Shown: one piece after another, positions 33,336 to 38,138 of the stretch
Layout of the letters: each line of letters starts with the position of its first letter
Numbering within the stretch: position 1 is the first letter of the stretch
Assembly: GCA_037130425.1 (NCBI GenBank)
Contig: JBAXTB010000001.1
Coordinates: forward strand, 2,527 to 66,526
Direction of reading: 5' to 3'
Length of the DNA: 64,000 bases
From: Bacteroidota bacterium
GTDB taxonomy: Bacteria; Bacteroidota; Bacteroidia; Chitinophagales; Saprospiraceae
Notes under the pieces: model-generated
Databases searched by the model: none
Told to the model about the DNA's origin: nothing
Seen by the model: only the letters and a program-made list of their open reading frames with translations
Translations under genes and position numbers: made by a program

Positions 33336-33347
33336 GGGTGGGAATAA

Positions 33348-33471
33348 CGAATATCGAACAAGGGGAATATCGAATATCGAATGGGGGCGTTGCGGCTGGG
33401 TATTTTGGGAGGCTGGGCGCAGCGCCCCCCGTTCGATATTCGGTGTTCGATATTCATCTGTTCGATATTTT
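33348..33471. repeat. about 124-bp palindromic element: 3 forward and 3 reverse copies of GAATATCGAA flanking a GC-rich stem
   Basis: Forward copies at 33348-33359, 33365-33374 and 33372-33381. Reverse TTCGATATT[C/T] at 33432-33441, 33446-33455 and 33461-33470. Core GGGGGCG (33383-33389) pairs with CGCCCCC (33423-33429). It starts 13 nt after the stop of CDS 30474..33335 and probably also acts as its terminator. Confidence 0.9.
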
Positions 33472-33574: not shown

Positions 33575-36328
33575 ATGCCCCTAAGTTGGAATGAAATAAA
33601 ATCCCGCGCCCTTGCTTTCTCGAAAGAATGGGAAAACGAAAGCAGCGAGCACGCTGAATCTAAGCCATTTTGGGAAAAGTTTTTTAAGGTCTTCGCAATT
33701 GAGCGAAAGAGTATTGCCCGATACGAGGCTTCAGTAAAAAAATTAGGCAACAAACAAGGCTATATTGACCTGTTTTGGCCGGGAAACTTAATTATCGAGC
33801 ATAAATCAAAAGGAAAGGATCTTGATAAAGCCTTTCATCAAGCCATAGACTATTTTTCAGGGCTAAAGGAATATGAGATACCTAAATTTATTCTTGTATC
33901 CGATTTCCAACGGTTTCGACTGTACGACTTAGAAGCTTCTACACAGCACGATTTCCCGCTGAATGAATTGGCCGCCAACGTGCATTTATTCGGGTTTATA
34001 GCCGGGTATCAAAAACGGGTGTACAAAGACGAAGACCCCGTAAATATTGAAGCAGCCGAACGCATGGGACGGCTACACGACCGCTTAGAGGAAGCGGGCT
34101 ACACCGGTCACGCGCTGGAAGTGTATTTGGTGCGGATGCTCTTTTGTTTATTTTCCGAAGACACCGGCATATTTGAGCGCACACAGTTTCAGGACTTAAT
34201 AGATACCCATACCAAAGAAGACGGCAGCGACTTAGCCTTGCAATTAGCCCAACTGTTTCAGGTGTTGAACACACCGCCCGACAAGCGCCTGAAAGTCCTG
34301 GATGAAACCTTGGCAGCCTTCCCGTATGTGAACGGGAAACTATTTGAGGAAAACTTGCCCTTAGCCGCCTTTGATAGCAAGATGCGGGAAATGTTGCTGA
34401 ATTGTTGTGCCTTGGATTGGAGCCAAATTTCACCCGCCATTTTCGGTTCCATGTTTCAGGCTGTTATGAACCCGAAAGAGCGCCGCAATTTGGGGGCGCA
34501 CTACACGTCGGAAAAGAATATTCAGAAAGTAATAAAGCCGCTGTTTCTGGATGAACTGTACACCGAATTTGAAAAGGCCAAAGGCAACCGAAACCGCCTG
34601 AACGAACTACATCGCAAAATTGCCGCCTTGCATTTCCTTGACCCCGCGTGCGGATGCGGTAACTTCCTGATTATTTCATACCGGGAATTGCGCAACCTGG
34701 AATTGTTGATTTTGCGCGAACTAAACAAAACCGGGCAAATGTTCCTTGATGTTAAGGAAATTATCCGGGTAGATGTTGACCAATTTGCCGGAATTGAATA
34801 CGATGAATTTCCGGCACGGGTAGCCGAAGTGGCTATGTGGTTGATGGACCACCAAATGAACATGAAAGTGTCAGATGAGTTTGGGCAATATTTTGTGCGT
34901 TTGCCGCTGAACAAGGCCGCTAAAATCGTGCATGGTAACGCGTTGCGGGTAGATTGGGCCGAAGTCGTGCCGAAAGAGCAGTTGAGTTATATTTTGGGAA
35001 ATCCGCCGTTTATTGGGGCCAAAATGATGAATGAAACCCAAAGGGCTGATATAATTGCTATCACCCCAAATTTGGACGGGGTTGGGCTACTTGATTATGT
35101 TTCAGCGTGGTATTTGAAGGCAGCACAATTTATCCGTGATACTCTTATTCAGGTTGCCTTTGTGTCCACCAATTCCATAACCCAAGGTGAACAAGTAGGT
35201 GTACTTTGGGGTAATATGCTTTCTAAGGGTGTTAAAATCAATTTCGCCCACCGTACATTCAAATGGAACAACGAAGCAAGAGGAGTGGCCGCCGTCCATT
35301 GTGTAATTGTTGGTTTTGCAAGTTTTGATGCAAAGCAAAAACTCATTTTCGATTACCAAGATGCGAAAGGAGAGCCAAGTCAAATCAGCGCACAAAATAT
35401 AAATCCTTATTTGGTAGATGCCGCGACAGTCGTTTTAGTACGACGTTCAAAACCACTTGGTAACGTGCCTGAAATTGGAATTGGAAATAAACCGATTGAC
35501 GGCGGCCATTATTTATTTACCACAGAGGGAAAGGTGAATTTTTTGGAAAAAGAGCCTCAATCTGCACGTTACTTCAGACGTTGGATTGGTTCGGATGAGT
35601 TTATTAATGGTTGGGAACGTTGGTGCCTTTGGTTAGGAGAATGTCCACCAGATGTTCTGCGCAAGATGCCCGAAGCTATGAAACGAGTGCAAGCAGTTCG
35701 CGAATTTAGACTTGCCAGCAAAAGCGCACCGACCCAAAAACTTGCCGAAACCCCAACACGGTTTCATGTCGAAAATATGCCTGATACTAATTTCTTGATA
35801 ATTCCAGAGGTATCTTCAGAAAGGCGAGCTTACATACCAATTGGGTTTGTTTCGCCTGAAACGTTGGCAAGTAACCTGGTAAAAATTATACCCAAAGCCT
35901 CTCTTTATTTATTCGGGGTATTAACATCTTTAATGCACATGTCATGGGTGCGTAGTGTGTGCGGGCGATTGGAAAGCCGTTACCGCTACTCAAAAGACAT
36001 AGTTTACAATAATTTCCCTTTCCCTATCAACCCAACCGACGCGCAAAAGCAAAAGGTCGAAGCTGCCGCGCAAGCGGTACTCGATACACGCGCCAAATAT
36101 CCGAATAGCAGCCTTGCCGATCTGTACGACCCTTTAACCATGCCGCCCGACCTGATTAAAGCGCACCAAGCCTTAGACAAAGCGGTTGATCTGTGTTACC
36201 GCTCGCAGGCGTTTACAAGCGAGTTGAACCGGATAGAATTTTTGTTTGGGTTGTATGAGCAGTACACCGCGCCGATGTTTAAAGATGAAGTCAAGAAGAA
36301 CAAGCCCCTTAAAAAAGCCAAAGATTAA
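33575..36328 (+). CDS. MmeI-family Type IIL (IIG) restriction-modification enzyme: single-chain endonuclease, N6-adenine methyltransferase and target recognition domain (917 aa)
   Basis: The N-terminus MPLSWNEIKSRALAFSKEWE...YIDLFWPGNLIIEHKSKGKDL gives the D65-X9-E75-X-K77 nuclease motif. SAM motif I is FLDPACGCGNFL and motif IV is ILGNPPFIG. Length and collinearity match MmeI (919 aa) as I recall it. Confidence 0.9.
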   Translation: MPLSWNEIKSRALAFSKEWENESSEHAESKPFWEKFFKVFAIERKSIARYEASVKKLGNKQGYIDLFWPGNLIIEHKSKGKDLDKAFHQAIDYFSGLKEYEIPKFILVSDFQRFRLYDLEASTQHDFPLNELAANVHLFGFIAGYQKRVYKDEDPVNIEAAERMGRLHDRLEEAGYTGHALEVYLVRMLFCLFSEDTGIFERTQFQDLIDTHTKEDGSDLALQLAQLFQVLNTPPDKRLKVLDETLAAFPYVNGKLFEENLPLAAFDSKMREMLLNCCALDWSQISPAIFGSMFQAVMNPKERRNLGAHYTSEKNIQKVIKPLFLDELYTEFEKAKGNRNRLNELHRKIAALHFLDPACGCGNFLIISYRELRNLELLILRELNKTGQMFLDVKEIIRVDVDQFAGIEYDEFPARVAEVAMWLMDHQMNMKVSDEFGQYFVRLPLNKAAKIVHGNALRVDWAEVVPKEQLSYILGNPPFIGAKMMNETQRADIIAITPNLDGVGLLDYVSAWYLKAAQFIRDTLIQVAFVSTNSITQGEQVGVLWGNMLSKGVKINFAHRTFKWNNEARGVAAVHCVIVGFASFDAKQKLIFDYQDAKGEPSQISAQNINPYLVDAATVVLVRRSKPLGNVPEIGIGNKPIDGGHYLFTTEGKVNFLEKEPQSARYFRRWIGSDEFINGWERWCLWLGECPPDVLRKMPEAMKRVQAVREFRLASKSAPTQKLAETPTRFHVENMPDTNFLIIPEVSSERRAYIPIGFVSPETLASNLVKIIPKASLYLFGVLTSLMHMSWVRSVCGRLESRYRYSKDIVYNNFPFPINPTDAQKQKVEAAAQAVLDTRAKYPNSSLADLYDPLTMPPDLIKAHQALDKAVDLCYRSQAFTSELNRIEFLFGLYEQYTAPMFKDEVKKNKPLKKAKD

Positions 36329-36329
36329 C

Positions 36330-36342
36330 AAGGCTAAGCCTT
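36330..36342 (+). terminator. mini-hairpin directly after the R-M gene stop
   Basis: AAGGC-TAA-GCCTT is followed by TATCTTTC. The stem is only 5 bp, so it is weak. Confidence 0.35.
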
Positions 36343-36394
36343 TATCTTTCACCATATTAAGATAAAAAATATTAATTCGATTTAAAAACACCGT

Positions 36395-36402
36395 TATATT
36401 TG
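36395..36402 (+). promoter_or_regulatory. Bacteroidota-type -7 box (TAnnTTTG) upstream of the three-gene operon
   Basis: TATATTTG ends 10 nt upstream of the ATG at 36412. This implies a very short leader, as is common in Bacteroidota. Confidence 0.4.
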
Positions 36403-36411
36403 TGACCCCTT

Positions 36412-36984
36412 ATGGAGCATGATGTCAAAATAGTACACTTTATTGGCTGGCATGGCGCTGATGAAAATGATTTGGATAGCATCCAAAAAAATAATTTTCG
36501 GGAAAGCACGGGCGACCACCATTGGATTGGTGATGGTGTTTACTTTTTCACTGAAAGGATTGGTGATCCGATTGCCCACGCAGAAAATTGGGCTAAAAGT
36601 GAAGCTTATAAAAAGAAATACCGCCGTTTTGTTGTGATAAAGGCGTCTATCTCGGTCAATGATGATGCCATTTTAGATTTAAATGACACTGTTGGGCTTG
36701 AACTATTCAATCAACATAGGAGTTATGTGCTTAGCGCTTTAAGCAGTAAGGGTAAATCTTTTCGCACTGTTGATGTGAAATATTCTGACAGTAAAGTGAT
36801 AGAGCATTTGAAACAAAGAGCCGGTATTGAGGTTGTAATACGTGATTTCTACGTTCAATTTGGAGAAGATCGTAAAAAAAATATATCGTCACGAGTTCCT
36901 AATTGTACGTTTCTTTGTGTTTCTAATCCTGATGAAAACATTGACCCTGATACAATAAAGGTTGCTCGCAGGGGAAATACTTGA
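36412..36984 (+). CDS. hypothetical 190-aa protein with a PARP-like H-Y-E motif pattern (candidate ADP-ribosyltransferase-fold toxin)
   Basis: WHG (H14), GDGVYFF (Y44) and IEVVIRD (E140). The order and spacing resemble the PARP/diphtheria-toxin-type ART triad. It is the first gene of a tight operon that ends in a SecB-like gene. The fold assignment is inference only. Confidence 0.75.
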   Translation: MEHDVKIVHFIGWHGADENDLDSIQKNNFRESTGDHHWIGDGVYFFTERIGDPIAHAENWAKSEAYKKKYRRFVVIKASISVNDDAILDLNDTVGLELFNQHRSYVLSALSSKGKSFRTVDVKYSDSKVIEHLKQRAGIEVVIRDFYVQFGEDRKKNISSRVPNCTFLCVSNPDENIDPDTIKVARRGNT

Positions 36985-37003
36985 AAGCCAAAATACATCA
37001 ACA

Positions 37004-37318
37004 ATGAACGCTGACGCTATCAAAAAACGATTAGAAGAATACTACCGAACGGCTACACCTGAAAAAATGATTGCTGAATTCGAGGCAATGGGTGTAGAGT
37101 TTGTGGATATTCAGGAGCCTTTTGAGGTCAAATATGATTTCGAATCTACGGCTAACGTTATGTTTAATAACGAGTCGCGCTCTTGGTTTGATAACTTATC
37201 CATTAAGCAAACAGAAGAAGCTTATTCGATGACTACACAGACAAAAGTTGCAGGTCACACCAATCAATCTTCAGGTCAACAGGTCCAAGAAGATTTTCAA
37301 TGCGCAATGGCCGCCTAA
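37004..37318 (+). CDS. small acidic hypothetical protein (104 aa), candidate antitoxin/adaptor
   Basis: The ATG is 19 nt after the upstream stop. The protein is Glu/Asp-rich with a polar Q/S/T-rich C-terminal tail and no recognisable DNA-binding motif. An alternative TTG start at 36962 would overlap the upstream gene. Confidence 0.65.
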   Translation: MNADAIKKRLEEYYRTATPEKMIAEFEAMGVEFVDIQEPFEVKYDFESTANVMFNNESRSWFDNLSIKQTEEAYSMTTQTKVAGHTNQSSGQQVQEDFQCAMAA

Positions 37319-37325
37319 CCTATAT

Positions 37326-37740
37326 GCAATTTAAATTAGCACACACAGAAGTCCTTTACCTCCAATTTGAAAAAATAAATCATAGTGAGGTAGAGGCCGA
37401 TAAGGGAGGCGGTTTGGATGATCCATACAAACTGAAGTTAAGTGTTTTCCCTGACTCGAAGCATCCTGATATGTTTGGAGTGCTTTTTGATATAGAACTG
37501 ACACACCAGGATAGTTTTAAGATTAAATTGCACTATTTAGCATGGTTTGATGGTCCTAAGCCATTCCTCCAAGAAGATATTGAATCTCCTTTTGCGCTAA
37601 TTAATGCCCCTGCTATTGCCTTTCCATACTTACGCAGCTTTATATCGCTGCTTACCCTTAATGCTGGCTGCCCACCTGCATTTCTTCCCCCTATTAATTT
37701 TTTAAAAATGTATGAAGAGGCTAAAAGTGAAAAGCAATAG
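37326..37740 (+). CDS. SecB-like chaperone (138 aa)
   Basis: It aligns with SecB along its whole length. FKLAHTEVLYLQFEKIN corresponds to E. coli FQIQRIYTKDISFEAPN. NAPAIAFPYLRSFISLLTLNAGCPPAFLPPINF corresponds to [32 protein letters not shown]. The start is taken at ATG 37326; the ORF-track start 37300 overlaps the upstream gene. Confidence 0.8.
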
Positions 37741-37797
37741 CCAAATGCTTGGGTAGAAGCTTTATAAATAATGGCATACCCCACCTTGACGAAAAAC

Positions 37798-37836
37798 AAA
37801 AGGCTAAATGTCTGATTTGAGGACGTTTAGCCTTTT
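37798..37836 (+). terminator. strong rho-independent-type terminator of the three-gene operon
   Basis: AAAAGGCTAAATGTC pairs with GACGTTTAGCCTTTT: a 15-bp stem with one G:U and a 9-nt loop (37813-37821), followed by GTTTT. Confidence 0.7.
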
Positions 37837-38064
37837 GTTTTAGAAAATCCCCGACCTATTAAATGTGTATGTGTTTCCAAGGTGTACTCAAAGGCAGTGC
37901 AGGGCATTCACATTTTGCAGGAAACCAAAGCAGAACTTAAAAATCTTGAAAGGCAATTTAGGCCACCTCAAAGCCTGTCCGCCTGGGAACTATACCCAAA
38001 TCTGTACCTAAAAACAAAAAAGGCCAACATTCTGTCCTCCAGAATTTTGACCTTTAATTTTTTG

Positions 38065-38138
38065 CGGACTGGACGGGACTCGAACCCGCGACCTCCGCCG
38101 TGACAGGGCGGCATTCTAACCAGCTGAACTACCGATCC
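38065..38138 (-). tRNA. tRNA-Asp (anticodon GTC)
   Basis: The reverse complement reads GGATCGGTAGTTCAGCTGGTTAGAATGCCGCCCTGTCACGGCGGAGGTCGCGGGTTCGAGTCCCGTCCAGTCCG. It folds as a cloverleaf with anticodon loop CTGTCAC and is near-identical in the D and T arms to E. coli tRNA-Asp. There is one C:A mismatch in the acceptor stem. CCA is not encoded. Confidence 0.93.

Follow-up and report, generated by a model that had tools for sequence, protein, structure and literature searches.

Three co-directional genes in a 64,000-nucleotide (nt) stretch of Bacteroidota DNA (contig JBAXTB010000001.1; the whole stretch is referred to below as the window) in all likelihood form an anti-phage module of the CmdTAC family, a toxin–antitoxin–chaperone (TAC) system listed in the PADLOC database as PD-T4-9, on the chromosome of an uncultured member of this phylum. 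The genes, numbered 1 to 3 here, are tightly packed on the forward strand between positions 36412 and 37740 according to the open reading frame (ORF) calls. They follow the order toxin, antitoxin, chaperone, and gene 1 is a homologue of CmdT, gene 3 of CmdC. A sequence-only reading of the window had proposed a TAC operon, and this proposal is upheld by the gene order, the SecB-like gene 3, the ADP-ribosyltransferase (ART) fold of gene 1 and the recurrent linkage of the genes. The same reading was not aware of any described SecB-dependent ART toxin module; the novelty implied by this is not borne out, because the concept was published in 2022–2024 with CmdTAC and genes 1 and 3 match the corresponding PADLOC models. 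The cassette is a divergent member of the published family and not a new kind of system. The main value of the analysis lies in annotation: the three proteins, all of which carry the database name "hypothetical protein", can be named CmdT-, CmdA- and CmdC-like.

PD-T4-9 was discovered in Escherichia coli ECOR22 by Vassallo et al (2022; PMC9519451) and has been renamed CmdTAC, for "chaperone-mediated defence". Its toxin, CmdT, carries an H-Y-[E,D,Q] triad of the diphtheria toxin/exotoxin A type, and a Y41A substitution abolishes defence; its antitoxin, CmdA, consists of a pair of helices at the N-terminus and a long unstructured tail that ends in LAA, a ClpXP signal (Vassallo, Doering & Laub 2024; PMC11618068). 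ClpP is needed for CmdTAC defence, the major capsid protein of phage T4 displaces the chaperone CmdC, and free CmdT ADP-ribosylates adenine at N6 within GA dinucleotides of single-stranded RNA, which leads to a translation block (PMC11618068). A second E. coli CmdTAC system (O112ab:H26) was characterised independently by Mets et al (2024), and replacing the terminal Ala-Ala of CmdA with Asp-Asp led to loss of CmdTA toxicity (bioRxiv 10.1101/2024.02.24.581848). CmdA is highly variable, and both E. coli papers call homologues without it (PMC11618068; bioRxiv 10.1101/2024.02.24.581848). As a reference for our comparisons, an E. coli CmdTAC was located by a genome search with the published Y41A primer restored to wild type. 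This copy resides in a P2-like prophage of E. coli strain N2250, where a DinI-like gene and the portal gene flank it, and its proteins match the PADLOC models PD-T4-9_A, PD-T4-9_B and PD-T4-9_C with E-values of 4.4e-97, 3e-38 and 7.2e-61, respectively.

Gene 3 is SecB-like, as the sequence-only reading had it. Its residues 51–136 match the Pfam family SecB (PF02556) above the gathering score (E 2.4e-10; 40.9 bits versus a cutoff of 26), and over its full length (residues 1–136) the protein matches PD-T4-9_C with an E-value of 5.9e-26. Its identity to E. coli CmdC amounts to 29% (E 2e-16). Gene 3 shares the fold family with the housekeeping SecB of E. coli, to which its C-terminal half aligns, but differs from it in lying inside a toxin–antitoxin (TA) operon and in scoring far below the NCBIfam equivalog cutoffs for housekeeping SecB (best score 47.6 bits versus 143; TIGR00809, 25.4 versus 102.8). 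By this measure gene 3 is not a housekeeping SecB. Bacteroidota generally lack a housekeeping SecB.

Gene 1 is related to CmdT by sequence and to the ART superfamily by predicted structure. The PADLOC model PD-T4-9_A matches it with E-values of 4.3e-8 and 6.6e-6, and a family profile built from gene 1 and 146 family representatives aligns with E. coli CmdT over 112 columns in hhalign (probability 93.7%, E 2e-7, 25% identity). A jackhmmer search of a local sequence set seeded with E. coli CmdT reaches residues 8–185 of gene 1. In both alignments, "GWHGAD" of gene 1 pairs with "GFHNCL" of CmdT and "WIGDGVYFF" with "WLTQGYYFW"; H14 is thereby placed opposite the CmdT histidine and Y44 opposite the second tyrosine, called Y41 by the authors, who count from a GTG start. 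These two residues are highly conserved among the family representatives, H14 being present in 146 and Y44 in all of the 147 sequences. An AlphaFold2 model of gene 1, calculated with 15 homologues, has a predicted local distance difference test (pLDDT) score of 85 and a predicted template modelling (TM) score of 0.81, and it places H14 in strand one, Y44 in strand two and E140 immediately before the strand formed by residues 141–146. When this model was compared with the Protein Data Bank (PDB) using Foldseek, the first 33 matches all belonged to the ART superfamily, among them the PARP1 ART domain, MbcT, diphtheria toxin, NatT, PARP4, exotoxin A (TM 0.44), PARP3 and Tpt1. Matches in a viral structure library comprised ART-PolyVal, PARP-like, DarT and 2'-phosphotransferase proteins, and the family profile showed a weak match (E 0.004) to the H..Y segment of PARP10/14/15. 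For genes 1 and 2, no meaningful match was found in Pfam and NCBIfam, where DDE_Tnp_1 (E 0.015) and other hits represent noise, and no RNase family was matched by gene 1 in Pfam, PADLOC or Foldseek. Gene 1 is thus predicted, on the strength of the model, to have an ART fold with conserved catalytic histidine and tyrosine residues. Of the PARP-like H-Y-E enzyme that the sequence-only reading had envisaged, the fold, H14 and Y44 stand, whereas position 140 varies among the family members; the third catalytic residue appears less certain than the first two.

Two RES-domain toxins, MbcT (6fkg) and NatT (8qnl), are present among the Foldseek matches (E 6e-3 to 2e-2), which would be compatible with an NAD+-consuming gene 1 product that kills by NAD+ depletion. 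Such a role is extremely unlikely, because gene 1 contains an H-Y-x motif and not R-E-S, is homologous to CmdT and is not accompanied by an Xre-type antitoxin. In addition, the matches to PARPs, exotoxin A and diphtheria toxin rank equal to or better than those to the RES-domain toxins.

The middle gene of the CmdTAC-like cassette stands in the antitoxin position and, as the sequence-only reading had it, encodes a small acidic protein; its tail is predicted to be disordered. Gene 2 has an isoelectric point (pI) of 4.5 and ends in QCAMAA; its AlphaFold2 model contains helices at residues 3–16 and 19–28, while the remainder has pLDDT values below 50–60. Starting from gene 2, jackhmmer recovered 40 further middle ORFs through a common N-terminal helical segment. 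The middle ORFs of related loci are mostly acidic, and 56 of 66 terminate in -AA (29 in LAA and 7 in MAA), compared with 2.6% of the background ORFs in the same loci. Three close homologues of gene 2 end in Q[YF]AMAA and retain its first 31 residues, W61 and D63. The predicted architecture of gene 2, with N-terminal helices, a disordered acidic tail and a C-terminal Ala-Ala degron of the ClpX type, matches that of CmdA, and the aromatic region around W61 is a candidate chaperone-addiction (ChAD) element by analogy with the aromatic ChAD motifs of Mets et al. Gene 2 has no match at all in PADLOC, and no antitoxin or helix–turn–helix (HTH) family was matched by it in Pfam, PADLOC or NCBIfam. With its conserved ssrA-like antitoxin terminus, the cassette extends the family by a further Bacteroidota example and opens no new mechanism.

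The E. coli ssrA tag has the sequence AANDENYALAA. Several betaproteobacterial CmdA-like tails are near copies of this tag (...AAANDELYALAA, ...SANDNSYALAA and ...AAANDGSYMMAA, in loci L056 1164–1415, L060 4561–4827 and L048 4542–4793), so the degron in these three loci appears to mimic the whole transfer-messenger RNA tag, beyond its last two residues.

The association of the three genes extends far beyond the window. When 1.84 billion representative proteins were searched exhaustively with a profile, gene 1 relatives were identified in 1520 clusters (50% identity) at E <= 1e-3 and in 397 at E <= 1e-10, and almost all of the 150 best matches listed are 180–200 amino acids (aa) long. A word-indexed protein search returned no more than 15 close homologues for gene 1 and 4 for gene 2, and the size of the family became apparent only with the profile search. 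We surveyed gene neighbourhoods, as the sequence-only reading had suggested, in the best 80 of 217 stretches from the Genome Taxonomy Database that encode gene 1 relatives. These loci are distributed over Bacteroidota, Alpha-, Beta- and Gammaproteobacteria, Firmicutes, Acidobacteriota, Spirochaetes, Verrucomicrobia, Fibrobacter and Armatimonadota. A SecB-like ORF on the same strand, 143–711 nt downstream of the toxin, was found in 64 of the 80 loci (64 of the 77 with at least 500 nt of downstream sequence), and 62 of these 64 SecB-linked loci contain an ORF of 47–127 aa between toxin and chaperone. Linkage to a SecB-like gene is therefore recurrent and represents the rule, so the proposal withstands one of the refuting conditions set by the sequence-only reading, namely that gene 1 homologues are never found linked in this way. 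CmdT-like toxins constitute a large family present in many phyla, of which the PADLOC toxin models capture about one third of the sampled top representatives.

By analogy with the E. coli system, the three proteins would be held in one complex in the uninfected cell, with a stoichiometry of one toxin, one antitoxin and four chaperone subunits according to the AlphaFold2 prediction for E. coli. The SecB-like tetramer would wrap the antitoxin tail and shield it from ClpXP, such that the toxin stays neutralised. Upon infection, freshly synthesised phage structural protein (in the case of T4, its major capsid protein) would compete the chaperone away, and ClpXP would then degrade the antitoxin via its C-terminal degron. 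The freed ART would use NAD+ to ADP-ribosylate single-stranded mRNA (adenine N6 in GA in E. coli), translation would halt and the infection would be aborted. Of the steps in this scheme, the exact substrate specificity is the most uncertain, because gene 1 is remote from the CmdTs that have been tested.

A number of points weigh against the CmdTAC assignment. Gene 1 is only remotely related to CmdT of the ECOR22 type: the hhalign alignment ends at residue 137, pairwise BLAST against a PADLOC-typical Acinetobacter CmdT gives an E-value of only 5e-4, and at E <= 1e-3 the PADLOC toxin model matches no more than 51 of the 147 family representatives. Its third "catalytic" column contains E, D or Q in only 90 of these 147 sequences (61%; D 51, E 34, K 24, S 8, Q 5, H 5), and in the iterative alignment E140 lies opposite an alanine of E. 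coli CmdT, within a poorly aligned region. The Foldseek scores are weak (best E 1.4e-3, TM 0.39–0.46). The model of gene 2 is of low confidence overall (pLDDT 51), and the protein has no sequence match to E. coli CmdA in BLAST or to PD-T4-9_B in PADLOC; this dissimilarity is expected, since both E. coli papers left CmdA out of homologue calling on account of its variability. Finally, the substrate, the trigger, the dependence on a protease and the phenotype in defence are carried over from the E. coli work, and the host is an uncultured metagenome-assembled genome (MAG) with no known phage.

Some of these observations would also fit a cassette of the same TAC architecture whose toxin is a member of a separate subfamily of CmdT-like ARTs and has another substrate or sequence specificity; its target could be DNA (as for DarT), tRNA/rRNA or protein instead of GA sites in mRNA. 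We consider this unlikely, though conceivable. The homology to E. coli CmdT detected by hhalign is remote and confined to the N-terminal part, and three positions that are better conserved than position 140, namely D126 (134 of 147), R154 (116 of 147) and N164 (145 of 147), are unmatched in the E. coli CmdT alignment. The structural neighbours of gene 1 include enzymes that act on protein, DNA, RNA and NAD+. On the other hand, the ECOR22 and O112ab:H26 CmdTs both modify mRNA (PMC11618068; bioRxiv 10.1101/2024.02.24.581848), gene 1 matches no other ART toxin model in PADLOC, DarT included, and the chaperone and antitoxin logic would be unchanged.

Comparison with known systems places the cassette closest to E. 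coli CmdTAC. Both are operons of toxin, antitoxin and chaperone genes with similar product sizes (190, 104 and 138 aa here; 190–192, 77 and 129 aa in E. coli), and both encode an ART toxin with aligned catalytic His and Tyr, an antitoxin with predicted N-terminal helices and a disordered tail ending in Ala-Ala, and a SecB-like chaperone of the same family; both also lie among defence genes. They differ in phylum, the present host being a Bacteroidota member that is probably Saprospiraceae-like, and in the toxin, which is only remotely similar and has no confident alignment in its C-terminal third. The antitoxin of the window is unrelated in sequence to CmdA, 27 aa longer and ends in AMAA instead of LAA. 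Moreover, the present cassette belongs to an islet in the chromosome, with an MmeI gene and a tRNA gene as neighbours, whereas the N2250 reference copy is part of a P2-like prophage. Classical TAC systems (HigBA-Rv1957 of Mycobacterium tuberculosis, MqsRAC, and HigBAC of E. coli NT1F31) likewise have an antitoxin with a C-terminal chaperone-addiction tail, which is ClpXP-sensitive in several of them, but they combine RNase toxins (HigB, MqsR, HicA) with canonical DNA-binding antitoxins, while the window encodes an ART toxin and an antitoxin without a recognisable DNA-binding domain. An RNase-type TAC system (HigBAC, MqsRAC or HicAB-SecB) was ruled out on the basis of the ART fold of gene 1 and the lack of an antitoxin or HTH match for gene 2. 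DarTG resembles the cassette in being an abortive-infection TA system with an ART-fold toxin that acts on nucleic acid, but its DarG macrodomain enzyme reverses the modification and it has no chaperone. This system was ruled out as well, as PADLOC gave no DarT or DarG match and no macrodomain gene is present.

Several variants of the T-A-C arrangement were observed among the relatives of gene 1. In Capnocytophaga and a Prevotellaceae MAG, a CmdT-like gene is followed by a CmdA-like ORF without a SecB-like gene (L038 3926–4749, L047 and L052 3983–4791, L034 571–1412). The CmdA-like ORFs of these loci keep the N-terminal helices and end in VIA, LAS or QIA, never in -AA; the pairs may represent chaperone-independent CmdTA modules. 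A CmdT-like subgroup of the Pseudomonas/Pseudoalteromonas type, characterised by an "RRDIRLDD" motif (L062, L063, L064, L068, L069 and L072), lacks any recognisable same-strand neighbour that resembles an antitoxin or SecB. Searches of plasmids with tblastn identified a few copies, of the chaperone in Acinetobacter and Psychrobacter and of the toxin in Klebsiella, Priestia and Rhizobium. On the Klebsiella pneumoniae plasmid pJYC01B (NZ_CP022925.1; L083 3001–4129), a toxin region of the ECONIH4 type is annotated as several short "hypothetical" fragments, which suggests frameshifts or assembly errors. The E. coli ECONIH4 chromosome (NZ_CP026399.1) itself carries a T-A-C-like cassette within a prophage baseplate gene cluster of Enterobacteriaceae (L085 4942–6101). 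Its toxin shares 31% identity with gene 1 (E 2e-31) and its middle ORF, to which gene 2 shows no similarity in BLAST, ends in VFQG instead of AA. This cassette, reached via the Klebsiella copy, is not a CmdTAC of the PADLOC type; PD-T4-9_A does not match its toxin, and PD-T4-9_C gives only a weak match (1.4e-5). The cassette could not be tied by accession numbers to the O112ab:H26 system of Mets et al.

The features of the window that surround the cassette are listed in the table below. The three genes are separated by gaps of 19 and 5 nt (37319–37323), and the NCBI gene calls for the identical 5.6-kb contig of the "Bacteroidota bacterium" MAG GCA_037139215.1 have the same coordinates, including the 5-nt gap. 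The first of these spacings agrees with the sequence-only reading, which had given 7 nt for the second. That reading had also assigned the operon its own TAnnTTTG box. The motif TATATTTG is indeed present at the proposed position, 10 nt upstream of the gene 1 ATG, and the starts of MmeI and thyA are likewise preceded by TAnnTTTG copies, at a distance of 20–36 nt. The window contains 59 occurrences of TAnnTTTG, compared with 72.7 expected, and because the motif is not enriched it provides by itself no promoter evidence. A scan for sigma-70 promoters, which is uninformative for a Bacteroidota genome, found nothing at 36395–36402. As a Bacteroidota -7 box, TATATTTG is a plausible but unproven candidate. 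The terminator, previously described as a 15-base-pair stem at 37798–37836, is real and stronger than stated. RNA folding predicts a 21-pair stem between an A-run and a T-run with an energy of -28.6 kcal/mol (z = -8.2), and 0 of 200 shuffled sequences fold equally well; the flanking runs suggest that termination is possibly bidirectional.

Features of the CmdTAC-like cassette and its immediate surroundings (window coordinates)
Feature	Position	Strand	Remarks
MmeI-family Type IIG restriction–modification gene	33575-36328	+	Upstream neighbour; all five MmeI Pfam domains
TATATTTG, possible Bacteroidota -7 promoter box	36395-36402	+	10 nt upstream of gene 1 ATG
cmdT-like toxin gene (gene 1)	36412-36984	+	190 aa; predicted H-Y-[E/D/Q] ADP-ribosyltransferase
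cmdA-like antitoxin gene (gene 2)	37004-37318	+	104 aa from ATG; pI 4.5
cmdC-like SecB-family chaperone gene (gene 3)	37324-37740	+	138 aa
Intrinsic-terminator-like hairpin	37793-37841	+	A-run / 21-pair stem / T-run; closes the operon
tRNA-Asp (GTC)	38064-38138	-	ARAGORN; 3' end towards the cassette

The neighbours named by the sequence-only reading, a restriction–modification gene and a tRNA gene, were identified as an MmeI-type IIG gene upstream and a tRNA-Asp gene downstream. The MmeI gene product matches the PADLOC model REase_MTase_IIG with 1265 bits. Further upstream lie genes for proteins sorted by the type IX secretion system (T9SS), a major facilitator superfamily transporter, an AMP-binding enzyme and a DinB-like protein, and beyond the tRNA-Asp gene follow thyA, folA and a glucose–methanol–choline (GMC) oxidoreductase gene. 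The setting is an ordinary Bacteroidota chromosome with a two-system defence islet composed of the CmdTAC-like cassette and the MmeI enzyme. The borders of this islet show neither att-like direct repeats nor a break in composition.

The four-gene unit of MmeI, toxin, antitoxin and chaperone (33575–37740 in the window) recurs in a Saprospiraceae MAG (locus L004, 1192–5369). Amino acid identity between the two copies is 68% for MmeI and 58% for the toxin, and homology at the DNA level begins exactly at the MmeI ATG and stops inside cmdC. In each case the unit is situated immediately 3' of a tRNA gene on the minus strand (tRNA-Asp in the window, tRNA-Cys in L004), and an identical 16-mer, TACCCAAATCTGTACC, is present 55–59 nt from the tRNA end (window 37993–38008; L004 5505–5520). 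Neither an integrase nor a left-end repeat was found for the unit.

The physical coupling of the cassette to an MmeI gene in two genomes raises the question of whether it serves as an addiction or stabilisation module, or persists as a decaying remnant, that keeps the MmeI islet without a role in phage defence. TA modules can stabilise genomic islands, and no phage or phenotype is known for the host. An addiction-only module is nevertheless very unlikely, given that T-A-C occurs by itself, in unrelated housekeeping contexts, in close relatives. In addition, none of the three ORFs is disrupted, the catalytic and degron motifs are preserved, and the characterised members of the family act in abortive-infection defence (PMC9519451). 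With the defence module as the preferred reading, a doubtful extension of it is that the gene 1 clade forms a functionally distinct CmdT subfamily, in which D126, R154 and N164 could specify a nucleic-acid target or motif other than GA in mRNA, and that in Saprospiraceae-like bacteria the cassette is part of a conserved four-gene MmeI and CmdTAC unit, found beside different tRNA genes and without a recognisable integrase. If this were true, both the subfamily and the conserved unit would be new. Upstream of the islet, the short spacer between the gene for a 953-aa T9SS-sorted protein and the MmeI gene contains two tandem 19-nt copies, GGGAATAACGAATATCGAA and GGGAATATCGAATATCGAA, at 33340–33381.

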